Shown one piece after another: positions 2,462 to 60,035 of a stretch of 64,000 nucleotides of DNA (positions are counted from its first letter, which is position 1; every line of letters begins with the position of its first letter). The position numbers and the translations under genes are program-made. Location: positions 1 through 64,000 of IMG/VR virus record IMGVR_UViG_3300021185_003145; one strand, written 5' to 3'. The stretch is from a virus. A model generated the notes under the pieces. That model was given only the letters and a program-made list of their open reading frames with translations. It was not told the origin of the DNA and searched no databases.

Positions 2462-3178
2462 TTAAGAAGTCTTTATATAGTACTGCTCGACACGTTTCCA
2501 CCATTGTTGACGCCAATGTTCAAATAATTCTCCTTCAACAATAAACTCTTGATACTGTGGATCTGTTTGTAACTTACCTTGATCATCCATCTCAGGCTTA
2601 ACACACATTAACACTACACCTTTAGAAATGTTTGTGCCATAGACTTCGTTATGTGCTTCTGCATATGCACACAGTTGTAAGTAATAATCTTCTACCCATT
2701 CTGCTTTCTTAGGCTTATTAGTTTGCTTAAAGTCCATAATAGCATGTTCGCCTTTGTGTACTCCTACTAAGTCAGTTGTACCTGCGTATATGCCAGGAAA
2801 GAACATAGATACTTCTACGCCCCATACTTGATCAACATTACACATTCCTTCACGTATAATAGTTTCAGCCATTGCATGAGATTGATGACTGAATGGATTT
2901 GTGCCACGTTCTTTAATAAAACCGTCAATGCAATAATTTTCAAGGTAGGTATGCATACGAGTACCACGATTGGCTGCCTCAGTCACAACTTCCTGTGCTT
3001 TAACCTCACCAACACGTTTTCGCCAACGTCTTAGACCTTCTTGTTTTTCTTGTGATTGAGTTACACTGAGGATTGTAGTTACACTAGGAACCGCTAATCC
3101 GTCAGGAGTACTGTATAGCCTTTTTCCGTCTACACTCTTTCGAGTCAAGGCTTTGTAGTCAAATTTATCAGTTATCAT
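2462..3178 (-). CDS. PD-(D/E)XK exonuclease
   Basis: PSVTTIL, RGTRMH, E..YAGTTDL..IMDFKQT, YYLQLCAY motifs. Confidence 0.85.
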   Translation of the reverse strand: MITDKFDYKALTRKSVDGKRLYSTPDGLAVPSVTTILSVTQSQEKQEGLRRWRKRVGEVKAQEVVTEAANRGTRMHTYLENYCIDGFIKERGTNPFSHQSHAMAETIIREGMCNVDQVWGVEVSMFFPGIYAGTTDLVGVHKGEHAIMDFKQTNKPKKAEWVEDYYLQLCAYAEAHNEVYGTNISKGVVLMCVKPEMDDQGKLQTDPQYQEFIVEGELFEHWRQQWWKRVEQYYIKTS

Positions 3179-3209
3179 AATATTATTATAACAGAGATTT
3201 TGTTAGAGA

Positions 3210-3560
3210 TCAAGTTCTTTTTTTCAAAGCTCTTTTAGCCATTGAATCAACTTTATCAACAGGTTCTATATCTAAGTCTGCCTTAGTTGCAATAGTTCGT
3301 TCATCACCTGCTAAATTTAGTACTACAGTATCCTGATTATAATCAGAAACAAGAGCTTTAAAGTTTGGGTTGCCTTGTACTAAAGTACTAAAATTATCAT
3401 ATGTTAATGCTACACCTACTGATTGTGCTAACTGCACTAAAGCGGCCATACTAACTTCAGGATTTCCACCTGTTTGCTCAGCACGGTTTTTTAGAAACAC
3501 TAACAAGCTCATAACCTTGTTAGATGAATCTGTTTCTATTACAAATTCATCAAATCTCAT
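3210..3560 (-). CDS. Hypothetical protein, putative head-associated
   Basis: N-terminus MRFDEFVIE; coupled to upstream gene. Confidence 0.65.
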   Translation of the reverse strand: MRFDEFVIETDSSNKVMSLLVFLKNRAEQTGGNPEVSMAALVQLAQSVGVALTYDNFSTLVQGNPNFKALVSDYNQDTVVLNLAGDERTIATKADLDIEPVDKVDSMAKRALKKRT

Positions 3561-4552
3561 TAGATACGTTCTTCTCTGTCTAGTTCTGCGTCGCCTTCTT
3601 GTCCGGCTGGATCTGCATCTAAGTCTAAGTCAGCATCTGTATCGCCACTTATATCTAAGTCTAGTTCTGAATCATCAGCACCTAAATCAACTGCTGGCTC
3701 ATCACTAACTGCAGGCTGTTCGCCAATTAAAATACGACTTGCATTATCCATATCTCCACGAGCAGTTGTAACTGCATCCATGAATGCTTCTAAGGCACCT
3801 TTTGCGGCATTGTTAAATGCTTCTGCTTTTTCATTGCCCATTTCATCACGAATTGAATCTGTTAATGGAAGTAGTTCTTCATTCATCATTTCACCAACAT
3901 CTTCTAACATGCTTTGAATTCTATCAACCATGTCTTTTGATGCTAATACTAATTCAGCACTTTCCATTTCGCCTTCATTAATTTGTGTTGACTCATTAAT
4001 ACCTAATGCTTTTTTAGAACGTCTTTGTACCATTTGTAACATGCGAACATTTGCTATTCCACTTGACATAATTTCATCCATCATATCAATAACTGGCATA
4101 AGTCCAATCATTAGTGTTGGCGGTACAGTTTTACCTTGCTTGTATAATTCCATTGCACGTCTGGCTTTAGCAAAGTTTTGTGTTCCTACTAGCATACGAA
4201 GTGCTTGGTTTCTCTTTGCATCTGCTCCTGGAAGTTCCTGTTGTGGCTCAATAGCACCATCACCTGGCTCTTCGTTAGACTGCTCATCTTTTTCATTAAT
4301 TCCTAAGTCATTTTCAACTAACCATGCTTCAACAGTTTCTTTAGCAAGTTTAGACGCCATATACTTCTTATCTGTTTGATAAGGCCCTGTGCCTTTTTGC
4401 GATTCTGTTAAAGTTTTTTCAATAGCAGATAGTAACTTTGTTGCACGTTTTTCAGTTAACTTTTCTAAGTCAAGAGTCATATTAAAACGTGTTGCTAATA
4501 GTTTATTTAAACTATCACTGTGTTTAACTCTGTTTAAATCATTTAATTCCAT
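3560..4552 (-). CDS. Acidic helical protein, putative prohead core/internal protein
   Basis: 330 aa, acidic tail, several I-N-E/L-V-E sites, late promoter at ~4582. Confidence 0.6.
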   Translation of the reverse strand: MELNDLNRVKHSDSLNKLLATRFNMTLDLEKLTEKRATKLLSAIEKTLTESQKGTGPYQTDKKYMASKLAKETVEAWLVENDLGINEKDEQSNEEPGDGAIEPQQELPGADAKRNQALRMLVGTQNFAKARRAMELYKQGKTVPPTLMIGLMPVIDMMDEIMSSGIANVRMLQMVQRRSKKALGINESTQINEGEMESAELVLASKDMVDRIQSMLEDVGEMMNEELLPLTDSIRDEMGNEKAEAFNNAAKGALEAFMDAVTTARGDMDNASRILIGEQPAVSDEPAVDLGADDSELDLDISGDTDADLDLDADPAGQEGDAELDREERI

Positions 4553-4584
4553 GTGTTTATCCCAAACCTGTTTTGTAAGTGTAT

Positions 4585-5052
4585 TTAGCCTACTTTTAAT
4601 TTTTTAAGAAAATTTGTGAGACGTTCTCTTTTGTTTTTTAACTGACACATACTGTCATCATAACGTATCCACATAAGTTCTTTTTTAAATGGATCAGTTG
4701 TCGTTTTAAATCTTGTTAGAAATACATAAGCGTTTTCAACAAGACGCCCGTAATTAGTATCTTCGTGTAATATTGTTCTAGCATCTATATTATTGTTGCC
4801 AATAGTTGCAATACACCATGCTACTGCACTAGATCGAAGTGTAAACTTTTTTTCTTCACGTTTTTTATAGTACACTACCCAGAAACCATCGTCTTGTTTG
4901 CAAACATAGTTTCCTACTCTTACATTGTCTTGGTTATTAACAATAACTGGAGTTTGATCAAGTCTAGATTTTACAAAGTCTGAAAATTGTTTAAGTTCTG
5001 GTTTCTTTGTAATAGTAGAGGTCACCATTGCGTTTTTTCCTATATAATACAC
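4585..5052 (-). CDS. Hypothetical protein (true start probably ~5028)
   Basis: ORF track; overlaps upstream gene. Confidence 0.6.
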   Translation of the reverse strand: MYYIGKNAMVTSTITKKPELKQFSDFVKSRLDQTPVIVNNQDNVRVGNYVCKQDDGFWVVYYKKREEKKFTLRSSAVAWCIATIGNNNIDARTILHEDTNYGRLVENAYVFLTRFKTTTDPFKKELMWIRYDDSMCQLKNKRERLTNFLKKLKVG

Positions 5053-5197
5053 TCTTATTTACTAACATTAAACATACTTTTATATGCTTTTGTTCAACAT
5101 CAGTTAGTTTTACTGATGTCTTAAAACTATCTAAAAATTCTTCTTCTTCCTTTGATAATGCTACTCTTACACCATCAGAAAATTCAAAATAACTCAT
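4991..5197 (-). CDS. Small hypothetical protein
   Basis: 68 aa, ATGA overlap with upstream gene. Confidence 0.6.
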   Translation of the reverse strand: MSYFEFSDGVRVALSKEEEEFLDSFKTSVKLTDVEQKHIKVCLMLVNKSVLYRKKRNGDLYYYKETRT

Positions 5198-6099
5198 CGA
5201 GTTTTAGTTTTTTCTTTTGCTTTATCAATCCACTGTTGTGCTTTACTGCTAACCGGTGCATTTAAAAATTTCTGTGTGTTATTATATACTTTGTCGAAGT
5301 TCTTTGAGCGAGTTGGGTCTTCAAGACCTCCGCTATTATCGACAATAAAAAATTTGTTGGCTCCAAATATCTGCTGATATTTACCTACGTTTTGTTGCGT
5401 GTCGTCCCATATTTGCTTAACCATTTTAGGAGGTAGTATGCGATCACGTTCTTTGTTTCTTTGTTGTGCAACATCAAGACTAGTGTTGACAAATATCATT
5501 GCACAATCATAGCCTAGTTGCTTAAAAAATTTTACTTGATTTTTATATACGTCTACTTCTTTACCAGTACCATCTACAAGTAAACCAAGTCTACCTGATA
5601 TGTACTGTATACTGCGTTTCTTTGTTAAGTTCTTTGCTTGACCACGGATTTCTTGTCCTTGTGGAGATGCAATAGAGTCTGGATCTAAATCAAGATCTTG
5701 CTTTTTCATTAGCAATTCATATACTTCGTCACTGTTTAGTGGACGTAATCCTGTGCCACCAAGAATGTTCTTAGCAACAAAACTTTTACCACTACCCGGT
5801 CCACCTGCCATAAAAAGTGCTTTAAATATATGCGGGTCGTTAACACCTTCTTCAATAGTGCCTTCTCCAAAACTAACAGTTTGTCCCGGACGAAGTCCAC
5901 CTGCTATCTTTTTCTGACCTGGCTTTTTGGCTTTTATAACTGGATTATTTGGATCTTTATTATCAATATCTACTTGATCTGTATCGATAGTTGTCTCAAT
6001 ACCAGGTTTCTTTGGGTCTGTAAGTGTAACCTTATTACCTGCAACCTTGCTTACTTTTTGCGGTTCTCCACCAAATTCAAATAGATCATTTAAACGCAT
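5194..6099 (-). CDS. Zeta-toxin/polynucleotide-kinase-like P-loop protein with N-terminal extension
   Basis: Walker A GGPGSGKS, NSD, LLVDGTG, lid motif AQQRNKERDR. Confidence 0.8.
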   Translation of the reverse strand: MRLNDLFEFGGEPQKVSKVAGNKVTLTDPKKPGIETTIDTDQVDIDNKDPNNPVIKAKKPGQKKIAGGLRPGQTVSFGEGTIEEGVNDPHIFKALFMAGGPGSGKSFVAKNILGGTGLRPLNSDEVYELLMKKQDLDLDPDSIASPQGQEIRGQAKNLTKKRSIQYISGRLGLLVDGTGKEVDVYKNQVKFFKQLGYDCAMIFVNTSLDVAQQRNKERDRILPPKMVKQIWDDTQQNVGKYQQIFGANKFFIVDNSGGLEDPTRSKNFDKVYNNTQKFLNAPVSSKAQQWIDKAKEKTKTR

Positions 6100-6396
6100 T
6101 TATCTGCTTGCCTTGTTCAGTGCCTGTATTCTTTTGCTTACTGGATTTACTCGTTTTGTTCTTTTTGACTTACGAGCCATTTTAGTACCAAGTCTTGCTT
6201 TAGTCATCTTCAACTTCATACGTTTTTTGATATCAGGTGCGGCAAAACATGCTCCAGGAGTACTAACTGTTTTTCCCTTTAAACGTCCAATAGTACATCT
6301 ATACTTCCGTACTACTTGGTTACCACGACGGCCCCAAGCCATTTTGGTTTCATTTATATCTGTTTTTTCGTCACTGAATAGTTCTAATATAAGCAT
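6100..6396 (-). CDS. Small basic protein with acidic propeptide-like N-terminus
   Basis: MLILELF...INE followed by a K/R-rich region; TAAATA 5 nt upstream of ATG. Confidence 0.7.
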   Translation of the reverse strand: MLILELFSDEKTDINETKMAWGRRGNQVVRKYRCTIGRLKGKTVSTPGACFAAPDIKKRMKLKMTKARLGTKMARKSKRTKRVNPVSKRIQALNKASR

Positions 6397-6420
6397 ATTA
6401 GTATTTAGTCCTATTGGATC

Positions 6421-6684
6421 TTATTTAAGAAATAGTTGGTATGCTAAAAAGCCGCAGGTTGTACATAAAGTTGTAATAATACCTACACCCCAGTTAATCA
6501 TTTGTCTGTTACGAACGTCACGGTCACGCACTACACTGTCTCTGATTTCTCCGAGAACAGATTCAATACCTATGACACGCCCTTCCAGGTTGTCTAATTT
6601 TTCTTCCAAACGTGAGTACCTCGCTGCACATAATTCAACGTGAGCTTCTAGGCTTGTTTTTTCAATGTCTCGACTTAAACTCAT
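6421..6684 (-). CDS. Coiled-coil plus C-terminal transmembrane protein (XhlA/holin-like)
   Basis: Heptad LEEKLDNLEGRVIGIE; hydrophobic tail WGVGIITTLCTTCGFLAYQLF; GAGG RBS. Confidence 0.55.
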   Translation of the reverse strand: MSLSRDIEKTSLEAHVELCAARYSRLEEKLDNLEGRVIGIESVLGEIRDSVVRDRDVRNRQMINWGVGIITTLCTTCGFLAYQLFLK

Positions 6685-6825
6685 TGCTTCCTCAGGGTTG
6701 CTTTAACCGATTGATAATATTGGAGCCTTATAGACTTGTGCCTGTGTTTTGTTGCCTGTGTTATGCCTATCGCTTTTACGCTTCAGTTATATTTATGAAC
6801 CAAAGTTAAAAGAATATGTGAATGT

Positions 6826-7518
6826 TTATCTTTGAAACTTTCTTACTGCTACGTTACTTGCCTTTGCTATAGCATCTTTTTTTCGTATTGCTTTGTATCC
6901 TGCAACTGCACCAGCAACTGCACCTACTGCCGCCCATCCTAACTTACTGTTGTACGGACTCTTTGCATTTGGGTTAGCAATACCATTAATACTTTTTATA
7001 TAAGGAGTATGTAAATCACTGCCTCTTGCATAATGATTCATCATAAATCCTAATCGTGTTGCTCCTGCTTTTTGTTCACTTGGTAAAGCACGTGGCCAAT
7101 CTGCAATAATTCTACGCATTGCTTTAAGATTAGGATCTTTAATTCGTAAAGACTTTTCAAGTTGCATTATAGTACGTCTATCTCTGTCAGTAACTTTTAT
7201 ACCATTTTGTATATCTCTAAGCATACGTTTAACTTGTGCATTAGGTACACTAAGAATTCCTTTGTCTTCAATAGTATCAAGGTGTGCCATTAAGTTATGT
7301 AAATCACTAGCACCAGCTCTAACACCATCAAATCCACCAAAACGCATTGTATTTTTTGCATACTTTCCTGCTATGCCTGGATCAGTGTAACGCATAGCCT
7401 GTAAAGAAAGGATGTGTGCGTAAATATTATGTGCTACATCTTCAGCACTCTTAGTTTTAAAAGACGCAGGACTTCTAAATAATTTTGCTTCGACTAATTC
7501 ATCTTTTATAAAATTCAT
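6826..7518 (-). CDS. Hypothetical protein, putative virion-internal, with glycine-rich hydrophobic C-terminal helix
   Basis: N-terminus ..ELVE-A; GWAAVGAVAGAVAGY. Confidence 0.65.
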   Translation of the reverse strand: MNFIKDELVEAKLFRSPASFKTKSAEDVAHNIYAHILSLQAMRYTDPGIAGKYAKNTMRFGGFDGVRAGASDLHNLMAHLDTIEDKGILSVPNAQVKRMLRDIQNGIKVTDRDRRTIMQLEKSLRIKDPNLKAMRRIIADWPRALPSEQKAGATRLGFMMNHYARGSDLHTPYIKSINGIANPNAKSPYNSKLGWAAVGAVAGAVAGYKAIRKKDAIAKASNVAVRKFQR

Positions 7519-8651
7519 TATCTCTGTACCGCTCTGTTTGCTTTTGTAAAGTATTCTCTACCAACTAGTTTTACGTCACCTTTTGGATCTGAAAGAACGT
7601 AACCTTCGCCGCCTTCTCCACTACCAATAGTTGCTTTAACATCTGCATCTTGTTTTTCAAACTGGTCAATAATATCATCTTTAACAATTTGTATACCTCG
7701 TACAATACGCCACATACTTTTAAAACCGTTAATATTTTCATTAATATGTTGCATTATACGAGCTTGTTTAACACCACTAACTTTACTTGTTGACATCCAC
7801 TTTTCAAAATCATCACCTAAGCCGTCCATAGTTGTATCAACTTTACTGTTTATGTAAGCATAGAATATTTTGCTTAAATCTTTCATCTTAAGTTGTTCTA
7901 GTACTGCCTTGTCTAATAACTTGTCAATTTCAGTTGCACTACTATTTACTACTGATTCGAGTTGTTTAATTTTTGAATCATCGATACTTGGTGCTTTTTG
8001 TACTGTTACCGGTGGTATTACTAATACTTCGTTACCTTGCATAGTGTTCATATCTGCTTGTGTTAGTTTACGATCAATACCGTTTTCATCCATGTGTAAG
8101 TGTATAACAATACCGTATGTACTTTGTGCTATTCTTTTACCAATATCACTGTCTGCTTTAACTGTATATGTTACAATATTTGGAGTAAACACAAACGAGT
8201 CTTGTTTTTTAGGAGGCATTGTAAAATATAATAAATCACCTTTGTAGTACCCACGAAAGTCTTCAGGCATTGCTTTTTCAAAAGCCATAAAAGCATTTTT
8301 CATTGCACCTGCTAATTGTTTAAAGCCGTCTGCTTTTTCAGGAATTTTTGCACCAGGTCTGTTTAGTATCATTTGTGCTACTGCATCACCACTTTTTGCT
8401 TTGCCATCATAACCTTTTGCTACAAATCCGCCTTTGTCTGTTAGGATAAAATCACCAGACTCATCACGACCGAATATAATAGCAGGGCTTCCATCCCATT
8501 TAATTGTGACATCACTATGCCCTCCTTGTTCGAGTCTTTTTAATGACTCTAAAGTACGTTTAGCACCCTTACTACCTTCCCAAAAGATAATATCTTCTGC
8601 ATGTTGTATACGGGCCTCAACTGCTTCAATTATAAATTCAAGTGCTTTCAT
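7518..8651 (-). CDS. Ligase-like covalent nucleotidyltransferase (DUF6267-like)
   Basis: Motif I-like KWDG, III-like YKGDLLY, IV-like EGYV, V-like VKLV. Confidence 0.7.
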   Translation of the reverse strand: MKALEFIIEAVEARIQHAEDIIFWEGSKGAKRTLESLKRLEQGGHSDVTIKWDGSPAIIFGRDESGDFILTDKGGFVAKGYDGKAKSGDAVAQMILNRPGAKIPEKADGFKQLAGAMKNAFMAFEKAMPEDFRGYYKGDLLYFTMPPKKQDSFVFTPNIVTYTVKADSDIGKRIAQSTYGIVIHLHMDENGIDRKLTQADMNTMQGNEVLVIPPVTVQKAPSIDDSKIKQLESVVNSSATEIDKLLDKAVLEQLKMKDLSKIFYAYINSKVDTTMDGLGDDFEKWMSTSKVSGVKQARIMQHINENINGFKSMWRIVRGIQIVKDDIIDQFEKQDADVKATIGSGEGGEGYVLSDPKGDVKLVGREYFTKANRAVQR

Positions 8652-9490
8652 ACGCCTGCCAATTCTAATGTTCTATTGAACTCTTCGTTAAGTTCTGGAG
8701 GTATTCCAGCATCTTTAATAACACCGTTTTCTTCAAAACCTTTTCTAATTTTTTCTACTACATCTGCTGGATAGTTCTTTTTAACTGCATTCCATAATGT
8801 TTCAAAACTATTTAAATCTTTTGGTCCATCTAATCCTAATGCTTTAGCAATACCTTTAGGATCTTTAATAGGATCTATAATTTTTTCGTTACTGTTTTTC
8901 TTAGTATATCCATCTCCGCTTTTCTTTGGAACCGGTGTTCTTCTGATACGGATTAAGCCATCTGTAGGTGACCACATCCAACGTTCACTTGTAACCGAAC
9001 GCCCGTCATCAATTTTTTCGTCACTATCCTTACGTTGATATACTGCGGCAATTGATGCTATCATAATATTACGATAAACACCTTTGTATTTGGACTCTGT
9101 CTCACTAGGTGAGTGGTAATAAGTCTTTAACCAACCTGGATCTCCAGGCATAAAATCTACTTGTACATAACCTGTACGTGGTCTTCCATCTGACTTAGAT
9201 TTGTCAAAATCTTCTATTTTTATCTTTGTCATTATAACACTAGACTTTGCTAAGTCTAATACTTCTGGCATTGCTTTTAATTTTTCTACAAATGCAGGAA
9301 TGTCGTCAGCAGGTATGTTTAGTGCAACATCAATGTCGCCACTGAATTGTCTTTTACCTACACTGCCAAGTACATTATTTTCTAGGTCAATACCAAGTTT
9401 ACTTTGTAGTAACTTTAATGTTGGTTCAATTTCATCTATATGAATTGCACCTACACCGGGCATTGCACCTCCTTCACTTAGTCTTTTCAT
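8648..9490 (-). CDS. Pol-beta superfamily nucleotidyltransferase
   Basis: LGSVGK...SGDIDV signature plus downstream VQVDFM aspartate. Confidence 0.75.
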   Translation of the reverse strand: MKRLSEGGAMPGVGAIHIDEIEPTLKLLQSKLGIDLENNVLGSVGKRQFSGDIDVALNIPADDIPAFVEKLKAMPEVLDLAKSSVIMTKIKIEDFDKSKSDGRPRTGYVQVDFMPGDPGWLKTYYHSPSETESKYKGVYRNIMIASIAAVYQRKDSDEKIDDGRSVTSERWMWSPTDGLIRIRRTPVPKKSGDGYTKKNSNEKIIDPIKDPKGIAKALGLDGPKDLNSFETLWNAVKKNYPADVVEKIRKGFEENGVIKDAGIPPELNEEFNRTLELAGV

Positions 9491-10101
9491 TCAACTAATC
9501 CGTCATCTATCGCTTTTTGTGTTGCTGGACCTTGCTCTGCTTTAGGTAGTGGTTGTTGCCTTGCATCAACCCACATAGCACCTTTCCAAGTAATTTTGCC
9601 TTTACCTGGCCATTCCATTTCAGCACCTATTTTAACTGTACTAGAAAAGTCTTTTGGATCAAAATCTGGTTCTTTATCGTCAACAAATTTACCATATAAT
9701 TTTTCAATCATTGCTACTGATTTTGGGTCTTTCTTAAAAATTAATGGTGCTATTTGTAATAATGACTTTCCTCCAGCAAAACCTGTTTTAGGCTTTAAGT
9801 AAGTGTTTTGACAACCAAGTAAAACAAAAATTTTAATAAGTTTATCCATTGTGTTGTTAGTAACTTTACTATAAATTGCAGGGGCGTCTATTACTCTTGA
9901 TAAAGGTCTATCAAAGTAATGCTCATACCATTGTTCAAAGGCTACTTTTGGTTGCTTACTAAAAGCATCTCCGTTTTGAGCAATAACATTTTCAAGGTTT
10001 TCCATTGCTTTCGCATAAAAAAGTTTTGTTTTCTGAGCAAGAGCTTTTACTTCTTTTTCGTCATCACTTGAAAATAATCCAAATAGTTCATTTAAATTCA
10101 T
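9487..10101 (-). CDS. Hypothetical protein
   Basis: MNLNELF N-terminus; ATGA overlaps. Confidence 0.65.
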   Translation of the reverse strand: MNLNELFGLFSSDDEKEVKALAQKTKLFYAKAMENLENVIAQNGDAFSKQPKVAFEQWYEHYFDRPLSRVIDAPAIYSKVTNNTMDKLIKIFVLLGCQNTYLKPKTGFAGGKSLLQIAPLIFKKDPKSVAMIEKLYGKFVDDKEPDFDPKDFSSTVKIGAEMEWPGKGKITWKGAMWVDARQQPLPKAEQGPATQKAIDDGLVE

Positions 10102-10337
10102 TTTAATTTTTTCAACCCGTTTGTAAATTTTTTGCTGTCTTGTCTTTTAATTGCCAACAATAACTTGCGTTCCATGTCTTCGGCTATTTGATTATCGTAA
10201 CTATTACGAATTAATTCTATCAAATTCTTCGCACTGGCAATTAAATGCTCTGCACGTGATTCGATTAAATGTACACGGTCTCTTGGTATTGCAATGCTAT
10301 CTAATTCTTCTAATAGTTTGCGTGTTTTACGTTGCAC
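10098..10337 (-). CDS. Hypothetical helical protein
   Basis: GGAG RBS before GTG start; late TAAATA at ~10364. Confidence 0.7.
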   Translation of the reverse strand: MQRKTRKLLEELDSIAIPRDRVHLIESRAEHLIASAKNLIELIRNSYDNQIAEDMERKLLLAIKRQDSKKFTNGLKKLK

Positions 10338-10419
10338 TTTTAATAATCTCCGTTCGTTATATGTTATTTATGTAAATTTTTGTTAAATACAACTAGCACA
10401 AACTAGAGGTAATTACGAT

Positions 10420-11184
10420 ATGAAAGCAGATTTCCACCATTCCACACTAGCATCTTTGGCATATCAAGACCAAAGTCCTGAAATAGATGCACAATTTAAA
10501 GAACTTGGCTATGAGGATATTAGATTTATTAATATCGACGGTGCTCAAGTATACTTAGTTAGCAATAAAAACCATGTTGCAATAGCATTTAGAGGAACAG
10601 AAGTTACTCAAATGAGTGATGTTGTTGCAGACTTAAAAGCCTGGAAGAAAAGAAGTAAAGTAGCAGGTAAAGTACATGACGGATTTTATGATGAAGTTGA
10701 AAAAGTTTGGAAATCATTAATATTTGAATTGACAACTTTAGGTGTAGGAAAGTCTCTATCTATTTGTGGACATAGTTTAGGTGCTGCAATGGCAACTATA
10801 TGTGCGGCTCGTTTGTGTGCTTTAGATTATAAATTAGTACTATATACATATGGTTCTCCAAGGGTAGGTAATAGGACTTTTGTTAAAAGTATCACATGTT
10901 GTCACCATAGATGGGTAAACAATAATGATGCAGTTACCAAAGTGCCTATGGCAATAATGTTTTTTAAACATCATGGAAAACTACATTATTTAAATCACTA
11001 TGGACTTGTTCGTAACGGACTTAATCCATGGCAAAGATTTAAAGACGGCTGGAGAGGTAGACTGGCTGCTTGGAAAAAATGTGAACCTTTTGATGGTGCA
11101 AGAGATCATTCTATTGGCAAATACGTTGATAATATCGGCAAGCCAGAAAATGATATTGAACTAAAAAGTAGTTGCACTAACTAG
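10420..11184 (+). CDS. Class 3 lipase (alpha/beta hydrolase)
   Basis: AFRGTE, VHDGF, GHSLG nucleophile motif, YGSPRVG, NNNDAV, C-terminal DH. Confidence 0.92.
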   Translation: MKADFHHSTLASLAYQDQSPEIDAQFKELGYEDIRFINIDGAQVYLVSNKNHVAIAFRGTEVTQMSDVVADLKAWKKRSKVAGKVHDGFYDEVEKVWKSLIFELTTLGVGKSLSICGHSLGAAMATICAARLCALDYKLVLYTYGSPRVGNRTFVKSITCCHHRWVNNNDAVTKVPMAIMFFKHHGKLHYLNHYGLVRNGLNPWQRFKDGWRGRLAAWKKCEPFDGARDHSIGKYVDNIGKPENDIELKSSCTN

Positions 11185-12559
11185 ACTTTATACCTGCTAA
11201 CATATCTTTTAACTTACTACTTTGTACACTTGCAGTAACTTTTGCTTCAGGTTGATAATCCTGTGTATTATCTGCTCCTGACTTAATCTTGTTCATCATA
11301 GAAGTTGCAACTGGTTGTTGTCCTCCATCATCTTCTGCTAAGTCTCTAATTCTTAAACTGTTAATATCAAATTCTAAATCAACTTTTTGTCCGACACCGC
11401 TACTACTTCTAGTTTTCATAAACTGTATTTGATATCTTCCACGTTCACGCATTGCTCTACTTGTAAAAATACCAATAACATTATCAGCAGTATTAATCTT
11501 ACTAATACCACCAGCAATATGCGAATGATCAAACTCTATTTCTTCAACTGCCGCTCTGTTTAACTGCGAAGCAGTTACCATAATAATATTAAACTCTCTT
11601 GCTAAGTTACGCAATTCTTCACTAACATACTTGTCTTTAATAAACTGATCGTTTGGCGATACTTTAGCACTAACTGGCATCAATAAATCCAAGTAGTCAA
11701 CACATATAAAATCAATTTGCTTTCCTGTTTGTATTTGTAACTCTTTTAAGTATGCTCGCATATCATTAATGTTACTTTGTGCTGGCATATATTTTATTCT
11801 TAAACTACCTGCTTTTTTACTAGTCATTCCTAGTTTCATTTCAAGTGTATCAATATCTTTAAAAATGTCTTTACTTGGAATATCTGTAACCATGCTATCT
11901 AGTCTCATAGCACATAAGCCTTCACTAAGTTCAAGTGTTACATACACTCCTGTAAGTCCTGCTAGTGCCCAATTAATAGATAAGTTTTGCATAAACAAAC
12001 TCTTACCACTACCACTACCACCTGCAAATATATTAAGTTCACCTTTGTTAAATCCACCAAACAATTTCCTATCTAGTGCAGGCCAGCCTGTGCTAATTTG
12101 TCCATTACCATCTTTTAAGCTCATTAGTCGATCACGTGGATTCTCCCAATACTCAATACCCAAGTCATTTGTTAAACTAATTTGTACTGCATCTTTAATA
12201 AGTTTCTCAACTGGCTCATACTCACCTTTTTCAATCATATCTGCACTTTTTAAAATAGCACGTTCTAGTTCTTGCTTTTTAGTAAACTGCTCAAACTCTG
12301 TCATGAACCATTCATAGTGTCCATCATTTAAGTTTTCAACTGGCTTCAGTTGCATATTACATGCCGCATTTACTTGTTCATACGCAGGCATAGTTGCATG
12401 ATCTGTTGTGTGTTTTTCTATAAACTTTGCCGCTTCTCTTAGACTCCTATCAAAGTTTTCTGCATTAAAAATGTTTTGCACTCTAACAAATGTTTGTGCA
12501 TCATTTAACATCATTTCTAAAAATAATCTTTGTAAGTCTGTTGTGTAATTAGTTGCCAA
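11177..12559 (-). CDS. gp41: Replicative DnaB-like helicase (T4 gp41-like)
   Basis: GGSGSGKS, VTLELSE, VDYLDL, TASQLNR, MKTRSS. Confidence 0.92.
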   Translation of the reverse strand: MATNYTTDLQRLFLEMMLNDAQTFVRVQNIFNAENFDRSLREAAKFIEKHTTDHATMPAYEQVNAACNMQLKPVENLNDGHYEWFMTEFEQFTKKQELERAILKSADMIEKGEYEPVEKLIKDAVQISLTNDLGIEYWENPRDRLMSLKDGNGQISTGWPALDRKLFGGFNKGELNIFAGGSGSGKSLFMQNLSINWALAGLTGVYVTLELSEGLCAMRLDSMVTDIPSKDIFKDIDTLEMKLGMTSKKAGSLRIKYMPAQSNINDMRAYLKELQIQTGKQIDFICVDYLDLLMPVSAKVSPNDQFIKDKYVSEELRNLAREFNIIMVTASQLNRAAVEEIEFDHSHIAGGISKINTADNVIGIFTSRAMRERGRYQIQFMKTRSSSGVGQKVDLEFDINSLRIRDLAEDDGGQQPVATSMMNKIKSGADNTQDYQPEAKVTASVQSSKLKDMLAGIKSS

Positions 12560-24327: not shown

Positions 24328-25188
24328 CTAAATTGGATTTATTGGCTTTTGTCTTAACTTTATATTATTCATAACTCTTTTGTACATTTTTTGGTATGTA
24401 TCATCAAATCCTTCAACAGGTTCAAGTACACCATCTAATTCATATATTGGTGTTTTTTCTCTTGGTCCGCAAAATATGTCAATAATACCACCATTTGAGA
24501 ATATGTTTACTCTGTTGCCAAAAAAGTTAGTTGGATTATAATTACGAACTGGTAGCCACCACATTAAGTAATCTAACTCGTCTAATAAGTTCCACATAAA
24601 CTCTAAATGTGTTTTACTATTATTAATTTCTACTAACATTTGCGGTCTGCATCTTTTTATAGTTTCTTGACATCCTGTTAGTACTTCTTTCTCGTAACCT
24701 TCAACATCAATTTTTATAAAATCACAACGTCCAAAGTTTAAACTATCAATCCTAACCATTGGCTTTGCTTCGTACAAACCTCCTGGATTTGCTTCTAGTA
24801 CACTACACTCTCCGTAGTTGCCAGGAATGCTTGGATTAAACGAACTAATAAAACTGCTACCATTACGGTCACCAACAATGTTTCCGTATACTTGTACATT
24901 CTTACATTGATTCTGATCAATGTTTTTTATTAGTAAATTTCTATTAAACTCATTTGGCTCAAATGCGGCTACTTGACCTTTAAAAGCATGTTTGGCAAAC
25001 CATACAGTATGCAAACCAAGATTAGCACCAATGTCTAAAACAAAGTCTCCAGGTTGAACTACATGATTAAGTAATAAAAACTCATTTTCTGCATATTCGC
25101 CGTACAACTCTAAGCTCTTACCAATGATAATATCATTTGTAAAATAACTAAACAATCCGTGCTTACATAATTTAGTTTGTATTCCCAT
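24328..25188 (-). CDS. FkbM-family methyltransferase
   Basis: LDIGANLG, AFEPN, FIKIDVEGYE. Confidence 0.9.
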   Translation of the reverse strand: MGIQTKLCKHGLFSYFTNDIIIGKSLELYGEYAENEFLLLNHVVQPGDFVLDIGANLGLHTVWFAKHAFKGQVAAFEPNEFNRNLLIKNIDQNQCKNVQVYGNIVGDRNGSSFISSFNPSIPGNYGECSVLEANPGGLYEAKPMVRIDSLNFGRCDFIKIDVEGYEKEVLTGCQETIKRCRPQMLVEINNSKTHLEFMWNLLDELDYLMWWLPVRNYNPTNFFGNRVNIFSNGGIIDIFCGPREKTPIYELDGVLEPVEGFDDTYQKMYKRVMNNIKLRQKPINPI

Positions 25189-25946
25189 TAATCTCTTCGT
25201 TCAATATCGTCTTCTGTACATTGTGTACCAATTTGTACTTCAATTACTTTGCATGGCTCATTTGTTTGATTACTAGCCTGATGCCATACTTTTTTACTAA
25301 CTGTGTATGCACGATCGTGTGCAGTTAATGTAATAACATCTTGCACCTTGTTGTACTCCGTAGTCATCTGACACGATCCTTGTACTACATTCCAACGTTC
25401 ATCTCTATGTTGATGTAGTTGCATACTTAAACTTTTACCCGGTAATATCTCTAATTCTTTTACTTTATAATCATGTCCTTGGTCAATAGTTCTATACCAT
25501 CCCCAATCTCTGTAAACTCTGTCGCCGTTCCATTTTGCTAATAGTATTGAACTACTATTTTGCTTATCTTGGCCGCCAACTCCAAACTCAAAGGATAATT
25601 TTTCATCTTCCATTTTCATCTCCGGTATGTTTTCTGCAGTTCTATCACCGCCATTTGCAAATATAATTTCACTATCAGGCCAAGTTTCTCTAACTTGTTT
25701 AATGGCATCTATTGCAGAATTGTCCGAGTCGTCAAAAAGTACATAATCATCAACCATTCTCAAGTTTTGTATAATACCTACTCTATCAAGTATTGGCATA
25801 AACGGCTTGCCTTTCTTATTGGCTAACCACTCATCACTATTAATGCCTACTACTAGTTTGTCGCCAAGTTGCTTTGCTGACGTAAGGTATGACAAATGCC
25901 CAGAATGTAGTGGATCAAATCCACCTGTTACTAAAACAATCTTCAT
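25188..25946 (-). CDS. Cytidylyltransferase-like domain fused to type II mannose-6-phosphate isomerase cupin
   Basis: GGFDPLHSGH, ANGGDR; R.WG.Y, LSMQLHQHRDERW, IEVQ.G..EDDIER. Confidence 0.88.
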   Translation of the reverse strand: MKIVLVTGGFDPLHSGHLSYLTSAKQLGDKLVVGINSDEWLANKKGKPFMPILDRVGIIQNLRMVDDYVLFDDSDNSAIDAIKQVRETWPDSEIIFANGGDRTAENIPEMKMEDEKLSFEFGVGGQDKQNSSSILLAKWNGDRVYRDWGWYRTIDQGHDYKVKELEILPGKSLSMQLHQHRDERWNVVQGSCQMTTEYNKVQDVITLTAHDRAYTVSKKVWHQASNQTNEPCKVIEVQIGTQCTEDDIERRD

Positions 25947-30171: not shown

Positions 30172-32577
30172 TTACTTTAATCCGGCTAAGCCGAGTATTC
30201 TATCTATTTCTGATTGGTAATCAATATCTTCATTTTTTACTGCAAGATCATCATCACCATCACCATCTAAATCTACCATAATCCAGTTTTCACCTTTTGG
30301 ATCTTGACTATCATGTTGACAATCTGTAGTTGGCTCGCCTAACATATCACCACACTCTTTACATTTTAGGCTACATGCTTCGTTAATACTTTCGTCCATT
30401 GGCTCTTCTGAATCTTCGTCTACTTTGTCTTCTTTTTTAGGAAGTTTATCTTTAATTAGACCTGCAATCTTCAGCATAGTTTCAAGTTCTTTATCACCTA
30501 GTGCGTTTTTCTGACTTTGTAAATCTGCTTCTGCTTTTTTAAGTGATTGTTCTAAATCTTCATCTACTTCTACTACTTTTTCATCCATTAGTCCAAGCTC
30601 GTCTAGCTCATCACTTATATACTGTACTGGATCTCCATCTCTGGCTTTCATAGTATCGTATGGCATATCTTCTGAATAGTAATCAAACAAATCCATATAC
30701 AAATCAGTATCGTATACTGACATTAAATCATTACTCATTTGCATCTTTTTAGTTTCTGCAGGATGTTTTTTAAGTATATTAATAACATTTTCTTTGTCAG
30801 TATTTCTGGCTACTACTTGTGGGTAATCAGTATCATCTTCACTAACTGAACCAGCGTCATAATCAACTGCTACCATTAGCCTTTTTATTAATTGTTCATC
30901 AATATCATAACGTTGAATATTTGCTAATACCCATCTTTGTATGATTGGTCTTGCATCTGCATTTGGATCTTCGTCGCTTAACTCTCCAAGATCGTCATAT
31001 AACTCATCATCACCTACAATGTTGCCTAATGCATTACTGGCATTTTGTGCATCTGCTCCAACTGGTAAAGGTTTTTGCATAAGTTTTTCTAATTCTTCTG
31101 CAGCCTCTTCTGTATCTGGAATTGCCCAAGTACCTTCAATTAGATTGTTAGCCCAACTTTCTAATTGATTGTCTTCAGTTTTTAATTTTTTCTTTGCTTT
31201 TGGTTCTGACATCTTAACGTTGCCTTTGAGATACTTTAGTGCAAGACCCATTGCCGCATTATATTGCTTGGCATTATCAGTATCAAGATCACCTAACGCA
31301 TTAGCAAGTTCACTATCTACAGCGTTTAACTCTAAATAGTCAATTATCTTCATAATTATGCTTCTATTTTTTTGATCTTTTTCCTGGCCACTGCTCTTAA
31401 CTATTTCAAGCTCTGCATTAAGTTCTGCTTGTGCTCCTGGATTATTTTGTACTTCAATAGCATCTGATGATTTTGCAAACTTCATTAAGTTATCTGCTCT
31501 GTTGGCAAGTTTTGCATCTTGCTCTTTTTCAAATTCATCATAATCCTTATCTGCTTGTGATACAGCCGGCTCTGCTTCTGCTACTGCTTCGTTATCATGT
31601 TTTTCATTCATTGCTTTAATTCCTTGGGCTAAACTTGGTAAAACAGAATCCACAATATTGTCTCTTTCAATGCGAATTAGTTTACTACGAATATCATCTA
31701 AGTCGGCTTGTTCAATAGTTGACTCTGTAGGCTCATATTGCTGTACATAAGTCTTATATCCTTTTGGACCTGATAATGTTTTTAAAGTTGCAACTAAACC
31801 AGTTGCACGTTGCTTTGCTTGTTCAATAATATTTTGTGCTTCATCTTGCTCTGCAAAATTATCTGCACGTTTAAATGCTTTTACAAACTTTTTAAGATCA
31901 ATAACTTCCTGATTCATTTCATGTATGTGTTGTCCAAGTTCATCTACTTGATTTCCACCATGATTAACATGTTGTGCCATTGCTCTTGCACCTGCTAAAA
32001 ATCTAAAAGGAAACTTTGTGCGTTCTTTTGCTGAATTTTCAATAAACAAACTGTGTATTTGTCTTGTTCTTGAACCACGTTTTTCTTCGTCTACTGGCTT
32101 AGAGTGCTTTATAACTAAACGTACTTCACCAATGTTTTGATAACTGGTTTTAAGACTTCCGTGTAGTTTGCTCTCGTTAACATCTTCAACTGTGTCACTT
32201 ACATCATTTGTTTTAATATAAGCATAATCTTTTTTATCTAATTGTTGCTTGCCGATATTTCTAACATCAAAACCCATTAAGTTTCTTTTTGCAAAATATC
32301 TTAATTCTTTTAAAAATGTGTACCAATCTTTTTTATCATCATAACGCATGTCTTCAGTGATGTTATTGTTGTAATATACAACTAGTGCATCTGGATCAAC
32401 AATGTTAACTGTAACACTTCCATATGTTTTTCCACTACCTGTATACTCAAGTGTAAAAATTCTACCTGCGTCTGGCTCGATAGTACTCTGTGCCTGTTCG
32501 TTTGCAATAGTTAACTTGTCAAACTTCTTGGCTAATATACTGCTTAAATCTGTCGCTATTTTATTGTGTATTTGCAT
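30172..32577 (-). CDS. Large acidic multi-domain protein, putative prohead core/internal protein
   Basis: 801 aa; repeated x-x-E putative cleavage sites; ends RILGLAGLK; leaderless late start. Confidence 0.7.
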   Translation of the reverse strand: MQIHNKIATDLSSILAKKFDKLTIANEQAQSTIEPDAGRIFTLEYTGSGKTYGSVTVNIVDPDALVVYYNNNITEDMRYDDKKDWYTFLKELRYFAKRNLMGFDVRNIGKQQLDKKDYAYIKTNDVSDTVEDVNESKLHGSLKTSYQNIGEVRLVIKHSKPVDEEKRGSRTRQIHSLFIENSAKERTKFPFRFLAGARAMAQHVNHGGNQVDELGQHIHEMNQEVIDLKKFVKAFKRADNFAEQDEAQNIIEQAKQRATGLVATLKTLSGPKGYKTYVQQYEPTESTIEQADLDDIRSKLIRIERDNIVDSVLPSLAQGIKAMNEKHDNEAVAEAEPAVSQADKDYDEFEKEQDAKLANRADNLMKFAKSSDAIEVQNNPGAQAELNAELEIVKSSGQEKDQKNRSIIMKIIDYLELNAVDSELANALGDLDTDNAKQYNAAMGLALKYLKGNVKMSEPKAKKKLKTEDNQLESWANNLIEGTWAIPDTEEAAEELEKLMQKPLPVGADAQNASNALGNIVGDDELYDDLGELSDEDPNADARPIIQRWVLANIQRYDIDEQLIKRLMVAVDYDAGSVSEDDTDYPQVVARNTDKENVINILKKHPAETKKMQMSNDLMSVYDTDLYMDLFDYYSEDMPYDTMKARDGDPVQYISDELDELGLMDEKVVEVDEDLEQSLKKAEADLQSQKNALGDKELETMLKIAGLIKDKLPKKEDKVDEDSEEPMDESINEACSLKCKECGDMLGEPTTDCQHDSQDPKGENWIMVDLDGDGDDDLAVKNEDIDYQSEIDRILGLAGLK

Positions 32578-36504: not shown

Positions 36505-37014
36505 TTACTTTCCTGCTTTTTCTTTTTTGGCTATTTCTACTTCCGGAGTACCACGCTCTAATTCTTTAAGCATGTTCTCGTTATATTTGTCACCAAATGT
36601 TGGGTCATCTTTACTATCTTCATAGTCGCTATCAAGTAAAGGCTCATATTCTTTTTCTTTGGCATTAGCCGCTTCTTCACGTGCAATTTCTTCCGGGTGC
36701 TCAGCGTTAATAACAACTAAGTGCGACCCTGAAAGTCCAGCATATTCGGCTAACTCATTTCTTAATATTGCAGAAGTACAAGGATAATTTACAGTAACGT
36801 CAATCATGCTAACTTCTGAATTCTTTAATGTTTGGAAATCCATTGGATGTTCCTGAATAGGAGTTGTTTTTGGCTTACTCATGTCAGTTACACTGTACTT
36901 TCCGAGCACCATTTCAATTCTATCAATGTGCTGATCTTCAAGAGTGCCGGCATATTTTATACGGAATTTGTATTCTTTTTTACTTTCCGTTAAGTATTGT
37001 TGAAATGTTTTCAT
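36505..37014 (-). CDS. Putative head protein with T4 CTS-like N-terminus
   Basis: MKTFQQYLTE-S; late promoter at ~37043. Confidence 0.7.
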   Translation of the reverse strand: MKTFQQYLTESKKEYKFRIKYAGTLEDQHIDRIEMVLGKYSVTDMSKPKTTPIQEHPMDFQTLKNSEVSMIDVTVNYPCTSAILRNELAEYAGLSGSHLVVINAEHPEEIAREEAANAKEKEYEPLLDSDYEDSKDDPTFGDKYNENMLKELERGTPEVEIAKKEKAGK

Positions 37015-43641: not shown

Positions 43642-43766
43642 TTTATACCTCGCGAATATATAATATATATTAATATTTTGTAGTTGTATTTATACTTTTG
43701 CAACAAAAAGGCGTCTATTAGACTCAGATACCAGGTACCCTTTAAAGGGCACCGCTAAATATTTGT

Positions 43767-55131: not shown

Positions 55132-55239
55132 AAGTGAATCACTCCTCTTTATTATGGTTTATTGGTTTGGTCGGACCAACTGTATTTATAAAGGAAGTGC
55201 GGTTTTTTACTACTATGTTAATGTTTTAGGTCAGAAACT

Positions 55240-59954: not shown

Positions 59955-60035
59955 TTTATTCTCTTCCTACACCACTGTTCATTCCCGGGTGTGCCTGGGT
60001 ATAATGTTATTTATACTTAGAAAACAAAAAGAAAT

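Follow-up and report, generated by a model that had tools for sequence, protein, structure and literature searches.

A coupled family X polymerase-like and ligase-like gene pair in a leader-marked late block of a marine jumbo phage, a possible virion-carried break-repair system

We analyzed the first 64,000 nucleotides (hereafter the window) of the IMG/VR virus record IMGVR_UViG_3300021185_003145, which is 91.7 kb long and has a CheckV completeness of about 25%. Homologs of the window genes were found on contigs of 346-370 kb, and judging from its gene content the record is a fragment of an uncultured marine Rak2/PA5oct-type jumbo myophage. The main finding concerns two adjacent minus-strand genes, one for a minimal family X polymerase/nucleotidyltransferase (NTase; 8648-9490, 280 aa) and one for a ligase-like protein of the family DUF6267 (PF19782; 7518-8651, 377 aa). 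They form a translationally coupled two-enzyme unit, fused in some relatives, and both lie in a block that is driven by late promoters and flanked by replication genes on one side and an exonuclease gene on the other. Most products of this block open with a short leader, M-[KR]-[ILF]-x-[ED]-[ILF]. We tentatively propose, as a possibility that is still doubtful in its full extent, that marine jumbo phages load a Pol X-ligase break-repair pair by means of T4-like leaders, some of them together with a PNK-like kinase, and that DUF6267 is the missing ligase of cyanophages. A preliminary description of the window had proposed a kit of NTase, ligase-like protein and kinase (5194-6099). The three genes, all on the minus strand, are present with the coordinates and motifs it gave. 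Its interpretation holds in part: the unit in the leader-marked late block is a pair of Pol X and ligase and does not extend to a three-gene Pnk-ligase-NTase kit.

The stop codon of the NTase gene and the start codon of the DUF6267 gene share an ATGA overlap, and the coupling proposed earlier is supported by the relatives. The block was compared with 80 related viral loci, 79 of which had enough flanking sequence to judge adjacency to Pol X (informative loci). By profile search, 77 of the 79 have a Pol X-like open reading frame (ORF) as the immediate upstream neighbor of DUF6267, in most cases overlapping it by 4 nt, and four related loci have a fused Pol X-DUF6267 ORF of 791-1094 aa. Representative fused proteins show the order Pol X, DUF6267, sometimes followed by a cytidylyltransferase-like domain. 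Other ligases may take the place of DUF6267: Atu_ph07 has a PF09414-like RNA ligase (E = 0.002, full profile) whose end overlaps the start of a Pol X-like gene, and in P0252 a PF09414-like RNA ligase replaces DUF6267 next to the Pol X-like part. PA5oct harbors a distant DUF6267-like gene two genes away from its Pol X-like gene (BFVD E = 3e-5; hhalign E = 7e-4, motifs IV and V), while EST35_0227 of the same phage was rejected as DUF6267-like on comparison. The upstream neighbors of DUF6267 in P-TIM40, S-RSM4, P-HM1 and Melnitz were also rejected as Pol X candidates, having no detectable likeness to it. The coupling of NTase and DUF6267 is strong, not absolute.

The NTase carries the catalytic motif G42-S43...D52-I-D54...D112, which contains the Pol-beta NTase signature hG[GS]x9-13Dh[DE]h and the third carboxylate. 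In an alignment of 57 homologs (25-93% identity), G42, K46, D52, D54, Q110, D112 and R140 are invariant; all positions of the catalytic motif are invariant or nearly so, the three catalytic Asp residues without exception. The AlphaFold (AF2) model built on this alignment (pLDDT 94.7) has a palm, a thumb and a short C-terminal helical part. Its top Foldseek matches are Pol beta, Pol lambda and Leishmania Pol beta only (E = 2.5e-5, probability 1.00), with alignments of 228-252 columns. A VIA search, which is independent of Foldseek, matched Pol beta, Tth PolX, Pol lambda and TdT at Z 9.1-9.7 (156-175 residues aligned, root-mean-square deviation (rmsd) 3.0-4.1) and African swine fever virus (ASFV) Pol X at Z 8.4, with 157 residues aligned of a 176-residue chain. 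Terminal uridylyltransferases (TUTases), poly(A) polymerases, CD-NTases, MenT and CCA enzymes gave lower Z scores and aligned over the palm only, about 85 residues. In the best PDB match of the family profile, the GS...GDxD motif was aligned onto its counterpart in Pol lambda. In the model a single helix (residues 18-32) lies ahead of the palm, and the 8-kDa deoxyribose-phosphate (dRP) lyase and fingers (helix-hairpin-helix, HhH) domains N-terminal to the palm were not found; ASFV Pol X is likewise without them. About 50 additional helical residues are present at the C-terminus. The predicted fold is that of a minimal palm-plus-thumb family X DNA polymerase. The thumb and the polymerase-specific matches suggest templated gap filling, not tRNA tailing or protein nucleotidylation, and the earlier suggestion of a CCA-adding, AMPylating or cyclic-nucleotide enzyme was not borne out.

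The NTase had no match to Pfam, PHROG or NCBIfam models, and the Pfam DNA_pol_B_palm and thumb models gave none at E up to 1. PF14792 was detected below threshold in four of the 57 family members (best E = 0.023). An assignment as RlaP was rejected, as PF10127 did not match the window protein or the 57 family members at E up to 5. Searching the PDB directly by sequence with the NTase or the ligase-like protein gave nothing useful. The Pol X-like family comprises 624 representative clusters at E up to 1e-3. One giant metagenomic homolog (P0335, 1802 aa) unites a poly(A)-polymerase-like palm with cytidylyltransferase-like, Nudix and Pol X-like domains.

The ligase-like protein matches DUF6267 (Pfam E = 9.7e-35) and no other relevant family: PF01068, PF09414 and PF09511 gave no match. 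It begins with the leader MKALEFIIEA and has the motifs K51-W-D-G, G138-D-L, E349-G-Y-V and V360-K-L, in which K51, D53, G54, E349, G350, V352 and K361 are invariant among 35 DUF6267 homologs. We also aligned seven sequences, namely the window protein, three cyanophage copies, the Melnitz copy, PA5oct EST35_0228 and the Atu_ph07 'RNA ligase'. All seven share KxDG, GDL, PN-x-V-x-Y, EG[YFV]V and K-[LIF]-[VF]-x-[RK], and the K51-W-D-G of the window protein aligns with KWDG, KIDG and KLDG of the cyanophage, PA5oct and Atu_ph07 proteins. These motifs probably correspond, in order, to the canonical ligase motifs I, III/IIIa, IV and V. The AF2 model (pLDDT 86.4, pTM 0.82) is disordered at residues 1-14 and has a helical insert at about 225-333, roughly 110 residues between motifs IIIa and IV. 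An oligonucleotide-binding (OB) fold domain after the NTase domain was not found in the model, which stops about 15 residues past motif V.

The ligase-like character proposed earlier is supported at the level of the fold. Foldseek against the PDB gave weak matches (E about 0.05) with T4 Rnl1 and other ligases at the top. The best 50 rows of the VIA second-look search consist only of RNA and DNA ligases of the ATP-dependent type (Z 5.1-6.6 over 160-199 aligned residues, rmsd 4.1-5.5). NgrRnl, an Rnl5 enzyme of Naegleria, heads them and is the best structural match (Z 6.4-6.6). The VIA wide search returned the same ligase families, with a few helical bundles in between. RNA ligases are the nearest annotated folds outside DUF6267 itself among predicted viral structures. 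A PDB search with the DUF6267 profile had no matches, and NCBIfam names neither this family nor the NTase; a literature search on 'DUF6267' found no paper. Metagenomes contain more than 1200 homolog clusters at 90% identity. The lack of an OB domain suggests an RNA-ligase-like build. From fold and motifs we read DUF6267 as probably a new, divergent branch of covalent nucleotidyltransferases with such a build. Structure prediction and fold search, which had been named as a check on the preliminary description, point to a ligase fold for DUF6267 and a Pol X fold for the NTase.

Several lines of evidence bear on packaging. The leader-like N-termini noticed at first are enriched: the motif M-x-[LIFM]-x-[DE]-[LFI], defined post hoc, starts 7 of 100 ORFs of the record where 0.59 are expected (p = 2.5e-6), and five of these seven ORFs lie within 3.2-10.1 kb. 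Across the related loci, 188 of 467 distinct ORF starts (40%) inside the DUF6267-to-exonuclease block carry a leader, against 8 of 272 (2.9%) outside it (Fisher p = 1.6e-34), with the consensus M-[KR]-[ILF]-[NR]-E-[ILF]. The leader resembles the N-termini of the T4 prohead-protease substrates Alt (MELITELF), gp24 (MAKINELLRE), gp67 (MEGLIEA) and gp68. T4 Alt, gp24 and gp67 are substrates of gp21, cleaved after (I/L)-x-E. The head module of the genome is T4-like and includes an S77 prohead protease (Peptidase_S77 match, E = 6.7e-27). Leaders or N-terminal extensions are present on jumbo-phage DUF6267 and on the kinase, and are missing from cyanophage DUF6267 and from free-standing kinases, so that the leader looks like an add-on.

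The two operons of the block were described as late, and the T4/cyanophage-type late-promoter motif NATAAATA does precede structural genes and both of these operons, which have CATAAATA ahead of them. ATAAATA occurs at 21 sites in the record, 15 of them intergenic (7% of the DNA is non-coding), a concentration of about ten-fold, and 13 of the 21 sites lie at most 120 nt upstream of a start on the same strand. Examples of NATAAATA sites upstream of structural genes are at 43687-43694, 55183-55190 and 60008-60015. In PA5oct, the Pol X-like protein is annotated as a virion protein found by electrospray ionization tandem mass spectrometry (ESI-MS/MS), as are the leader-bearing proteins EST35_0230, 0237 and 0238; the same annotation is given to PA5oct proteins that start MRLDEI, MFLKDV and VKIKDI. 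Leader enrichment, the S77 protease, the late motifs and the PA5oct virion annotations together make packaging of the block's products in the virion a reasonable inference, which we hold to be somewhat probable. Elsewhere in the window, an internal-head-protein-like gene (36505-37014, minus strand) encodes a 169-aa protein starting MKTFQQYLTE, whose first 43 residues match phrog_2667 'internal head protein'. This protein resembles T4 cargo of the internal-protein type that carries a capsid-targeting sequence.

The NTase also ends in the LAGV tail noticed in the preliminary description (...LELAGV). LAG[VLI] occurs nine times in the about 28,000 residues of the genome, and four of the nine lie within the last nine residues of a protein; this enrichment at C-termini is real. 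The carriers are the Pol X-like protein, DnaB (11177-12559), an 801-aa virion protein (window 30172-32577) and a scaffold-position protein (genome 63553-64635).

The kinase is a 301-aa PNK/Zeta-type P-loop protein (GGPGSGKS) on the minus strand that begins 1.4 kb downstream of the DUF6267 gene. Its kinase domain (residues about 85-300) follows an 80-aa N-terminal extension opening with the leader MRLNDLFEF. As proposed before, it is Pnk/Zeta-like: it passes the Pfam cut-offs of AAA_33 (44.6 bits, cut-off 27) and Zeta_toxin (37.7, cut-off 22.3), and its profile aligns with the kinase domain of T4 PseT (Pnk) over 153 columns (hhalign probability 88.6%, E = 2.7e-6). GGPGSGKS aligns with T4 GCPGSGKS, and the invariant D124 with T4 D35, which we take to be the catalytic base. 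PSTK, adenylate kinases and Zeta toxin score about equally against it. A C-terminal HAD 3'-phosphatase gave no match, the protein ending with the kinase domain, and this goes against T4 Pnkp-like healing as first envisaged. The homologs form more than 7500 clusters, most of about 225 aa and without the N-terminal extension.

Co-conservation of all three genes had been expected, and the kinase does not follow the pair: it is present in none of the 80 related loci, even at phmmer E up to 10. Only near-identical relatives and a sister lineage have it at this position, the sister-lineage copy being about 60% identical. Atu_ph07 has the same kinase domain in a protein of 778 aa (as annotated) with the leader MKWNDLNE, about 10 kb downstream of its ligase-Pol X pair and in the same run of leader-bearing genes. 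We read the kinase as recurrent but optional, lineage-specific cargo. In Atu_ph07 (L091, 13588-24564) about eleven genes follow the pair, mostly paralogs of about 255 aa, and all start M[RK]W.QL[TN]E; this run looks like an expanded family of leader-bearing cargo. The sister lineage (L092, L094) keeps the whole block, including the kinase and a 204-aa gene, with no Pol X-like gene, and its DUF6267 is divergent (420 aa, leader MIINEI). The 204-aa gene and the kinase occur only together.

Break repair by a leader-packaged pair, with the kinase as an extra, is our preferred explanation, and as a whole we give it about an even chance. At a gap or nick, Pol X would extend the 3'-OH, perhaps by ribonucleotides, and DUF6267 would seal the 3'-OH/5'-phosphate nick through a Lys51-AMP intermediate. 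The leader would take the enzymes into the prohead, where the genome-encoded gp21-type protease would trim them. They may then accompany the DNA in the virion and on entry, being injected before phage transcription, and may mend nicks and gaps in the phage genome caused by sunlight, oxidation or host nucleases. The PNK-like kinase, as lineage-specific extra cargo, could phosphorylate 5'-OH ends and would not be an obligate partner.

We infer the substrate (DNA, RNA or a ribo-patch on DNA) from indirect evidence. The Pol X thumb, the replication and recombination context, the precedents of ASFV and Phaeocystis globosa virus (PgV) and the cyanophages without canonical ligases speak for DNA. For RNA speak the OB-less, RNA-ligase-like build, the PF09414-like substitutes at the same position and the analogy with RlaP. 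A model in which a ribo-patch is laid and sealed on DNA fits both sets of evidence and is, speculatively, the mechanism that we prefer.

Several observations weigh against the break-repair explanation. The ligase-fold scores are modest (Z at most 6.6), and comparisons of the DUF6267 profile with T4 Rnl2, T4 gp30 and the ligase-like half of P0252 by hhalign were not significant; the protein is also without an OB domain, unlike every DNA ligase. Pol X is missing and DUF6267 kept in two of the 79 informative loci (L071, L073), and DUF6267 stands without Pol X in the three sister-lineage loci as well. One related jumbo fragment encodes, besides the pair, a canonical ATP-dependent DNA ligase. As to packaging, the leader of the Pol X-like protein is no more than a weak version (MKRLSE-GG; family MxLNEGG), and the DUF6267-like protein of PA5oct is not among the MS-detected proteins of that phage. 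The LAGV tail is not conserved, being present in 28 of 120 close and 1 of 149 distant NTase homologs, and DnaB, which is no virion protein, also has a LAG tail.

The strongest competitor is a module for RNA (tRNA) repair like that of RlaP and RNA ligase or that of T4 Pnkp and Rnl1, in which the NTase restores the nucleotides that cleaved tRNA has lost, the ligase seals the RNA and the kinase heals 5'-OH ends, countering anticodon nucleases. It draws on the OB-less build of DUF6267, whose nearest annotated folds are Rnl1, Rnl2 and Rnl5, on the PF09414-like RNA ligases that stand beside Pol X-like sequences in Atu_ph07 and P0252, on the homology of the kinase with T4 Pnk, and on the known theme of Pol-beta NTase and RNA ligase pairs (PMC7824862; RlaP preprint). 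The NTase family, however, is unmatched by PF10127 in all 57 members and has the Pol X thumb, while RNA-specific NTases align on the palm only, over about 85 residues. Nor was a 3'-phosphatase or 2',3'-cyclic phosphodiesterase partner found, the kinase is missing from all 80 related loci, and the pair sits in a DNA replication and recombination context under late promoters. The preliminary description had named rescue from anticodon nucleases, and nothing specifically ties the module to it. We regard RNA repair as unlikely.

In another explanation the pair would be an unpackaged intracellular accessory of replication and repair, with DUF6267 as a replicative or repair ligase, Pol X as gap filler and leaders that serve otherwise. 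This accords with cyanophages, where DUF6267 is near-universal in the T4-like members and lies among replication genes with no leader; four DUF6267-bearing T4-like genomes are without PF01068 and PF01653, and gp30 counts as a non-cyanophage core gene (PMC5349666). Against this stand three features of the jumbo clade: the leader that DUF6267 has acquired, its place in a late block with virion proteins as PA5oct homologs, and the canonical DNA ligase that coexists with it. We consider an unpackaged accessory rather improbable. A target other than nucleic acid (protein nucleotidylation, synthesis or degradation of a nucleotide signal, or a tail-fiber role like that of T4 Rnl1/gp63) seems very improbable to us. 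The Pol-beta superfamily and ligase-fold enzymes are versatile, the T4 record annotates RnlA as a catalyst of tail-fiber attachment, and DUF6267 is often fused to cytidylyltransferase-like domains, in one large homolog also with Nudix. The thumb and the best matches are nevertheless specific to primer-template polymerases, cGAS/CD-NTase, MenT and aminoglycoside NTases score lower and over the palm only, and the lysyl-AMP ligase motifs are intact. Break repair by a packaged pair remains the explanation that we prefer.

DUF6267 was found in 368 Synechococcus-phage and 61 'Cyanophage' records, compared with 377 and 61 with gp41, and is thus near-universal, in essence a core gene, in T4-like cyanophages. 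There it always lies within the gp41-mazG...gp61 replication region (for example L001 5998-7188, L088 3477-4679 and L090 3477-4682), with a cytidylyltransferase-like gene after it or fused to it. PF01068 and PF01653 ligases were not found in four complete DUF6267-bearing T4-like genomes (three cyanophages and Melnitz), and gp30 has been reported as a non-cyanophage core gene (PMC5349666). DUF6267 could therefore be a candidate for the 'missing ligase' of T4-like cyanophages. As sole ligase of the jumbo clade it was rejected, since the related jumbo fragment G002 and PA5oct carry PF01068 ligases; a canonical ligase beside the pair suggests that DUF6267 is a specialized ligase of that clade, not its only one. 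A PF09414 RNA ligase was not found in PA5oct, in two cyanophages or in the window's record, where absence is uninformative at about 25% completeness. The window also has a cytidylyltransferase-like (HxGH) protein with a cupin-like C-terminal half (25188-25946, minus strand), 16 kb from DUF6267 and of the domain type fused to DUF6267 in other phages.

The genes of the block are all on the minus strand, in two tight runs between DnaB and a PD-(D/E)XK exonuclease (2462-3178). The first operon has a T4-type late-promoter-like motif, CATAAATA (10365-10372, minus strand), 28 nt upstream of the GTG start of a 79-aa gene (10098-10337). This gene, the first of the operon and conserved among Rak2/PA5oct-type jumbo phages, matches phrog_11854 'virion structural protein' (E = 2.7e-17), is present in 63 of the 80 loci and was found by tblastn in 69 phage records, including PA5oct, RaK2, K64-1 and XaC1. 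Its identity with PA5oct EST35_0230 was rejected: there was no match, and the tblastn match falls in EST35_0225. It is followed by the 204-aa leader-bearing protein (9487-10101; MNLNELF...), which has no family match, is absent from the 80 loci and is limited to kinase-bearing lineages. After NTase and DUF6267 comes a 230-aa protein (6826-7518; MNFIKDELVEA...) with a Gly/Ala-rich hydrophobic C-terminal segment, the third coupled gene, with a TAATG overlap. Homologs occur in 20 of the 80 loci, and in many more its position is taken by ORFs that start M[ED]F[IL].[ED][IL].EAR and are about 290 aa long.

A second CATAAATA late-promoter-like motif (6790-6797, minus strand) lies in a 140-nt gap ahead of the second operon, 106 nt upstream of an 87-aa coiled-coil protein with a hydrophobic C-terminus and no leader (6421-6684; 37 of 80 loci). 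A 98-aa basic protein with the leader MLILELF (6100-6396; 50 of 80 loci) precedes the kinase, whose stop is overlapped by ATGA with the start of a 68-aa protein (4991-5197; MSYFEF...). Next come a 155-aa protein with no family match (4585-5052), a 330-aa acidic protein with the leader MELNDL (3560-4552; phrog_14154 'virion structural protein'; 53 of 80 loci) and a 116-aa protein with the leader MRFDEF (3210-3560). The tblastn homolog of the 330-aa protein is the MS-detected virion protein EST35_0237 of PA5oct. The exonuclease, which has no leader, matches phrog_298 'exonuclease' (E = 2.6e-50) and is found at the block end in 36 of the 80 loci. DnaB and the late block are separated by a lone plus-strand esterase/lipase gene (10420-11184; phrog_21992), which is oriented divergently to the late promoter.

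The record contains the T4-type replication genes primase, DnaB, UvsX and SSB, and small conserved virion genes are common to the window phage and PA5oct, RaK2, XaC1 and Atu_ph07. At least 13 studies dated 2018-2025 have yielded seawater and marine metagenomes with DNA near-identical to positions 3200-10420, and the window phage is a widespread and abundant ocean phage. The near-identical stretch is also present in contigs of six metatranscriptome libraries, which is no proof of transcription; in four libraries such contigs span most of the block, and strand, transcript ends and transcription are not readable from contigs.

If our proposal is true, this would be the first bacterial-virus counterpart of the virion-packaged repair system of ASFV, and genomes damaged by sun or nucleases would be patched on entry, possibly by a ribonucleotide patch. 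Two unnamed families, DUF6267 and the phage Pol X-like proteins, gain a testable function, and the former could fill the known gap left by T4-like cyanophages without a recognizable DNA ligase. Should packaging be confirmed, genome repair carried in the virion would be known not only from a eukaryotic giant virus but also from abundant ocean phages, which bears on the persistence of phage infectivity under sunlight damage and attack by host nucleases. The short leader could become a tool for loading proteins into capsids, and the NATAAATA motif is usable for mapping the late regulon of the window phage.

Among known systems, ASFV packages a repair pathway of Pol X, ligase and apurinic/apyrimidinic (AP) endonuclease in its virions, for use at entry (PMC6505686). 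The window pair shares with it a minimal palm-plus-thumb Pol X (pO174L in ASFV) paired with a ligase. Here, however, the virus is bacterial, the partner is the OB-less, RNA-ligase-like DUF6267 where ASFV has a DNA ligase, an AP endonuclease was not identified, about 50 extra C-terminal residues are present and packaging is predicted. The PolX-ligase fusion of PgV works in base excision repair (PMC5537341), and PgVPolX has the same order as the fused homologs, an N-terminal Pol X and then the ligase. Its ligase half is of the NAD+-dependent type and its Pol X has dRP-lyase activity, whereas here the ligase half is DUF6267 and there is no 8-kDa lyase domain.

The RlaP (PF10127)-RNA ligase pairs of bacteria and jumbo phages likewise tie a Pol-beta NTase gene to a gene of ATP-dependent RNA-ligase type, and the RlaP-type NTase is predicted to restore 3' nucleotides before sealing (PMC7824862; RlaP preprint). 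The window NTase differs in having no PF10127 match, a Pol X fold with a thumb, and a place in a late-expressed, leader-bearing block. The nick-sealing RNA ligase Rnl5 of Deinococcus has been proposed to seal ribo-patches on DNA after a repair polymerase has added the ribonucleotides, with PolX as one plausible gap filler (PMC5397189). Enzymes of the Rnl5/Rnl2 kind (NgrRnl, DraRnl, T4 Rnl2) are the best structural matches of DUF6267, and a PF09414-like ligase stands at the equivalent position in Atu_ph07. DUF6267 is not a member of these families at the sequence level, however; it has the helical insert, and neither the OB domain that Rnl5 has at its N-terminus nor the domain at the C-terminus of Rnl2 is present. 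With T4 Pnkp and Rnl1 the window shares a homologous kinase domain, in which P-loop and catalytic Asp align, and a ligase-fold partner in the same region. Here the kinase has no phosphatase domain, the kinase and ligase genes are not co-conserved, and the conserved partner of DUF6267 is Pol X, which T4 lacks. Finally, the capsid-targeting sequences, internal proteins and Alt of T4 show the same picture, in which enzymes and small proteins carry short leaders that have an (I/L)-x-E site. A gp21-type protease is present in the window phage as well, and in both cases the cargo sets vary between relatives. What sets the window phage apart is that its putative cargo would consist of nucleic-acid repair enzymes, with cleavage and packaging predicted.

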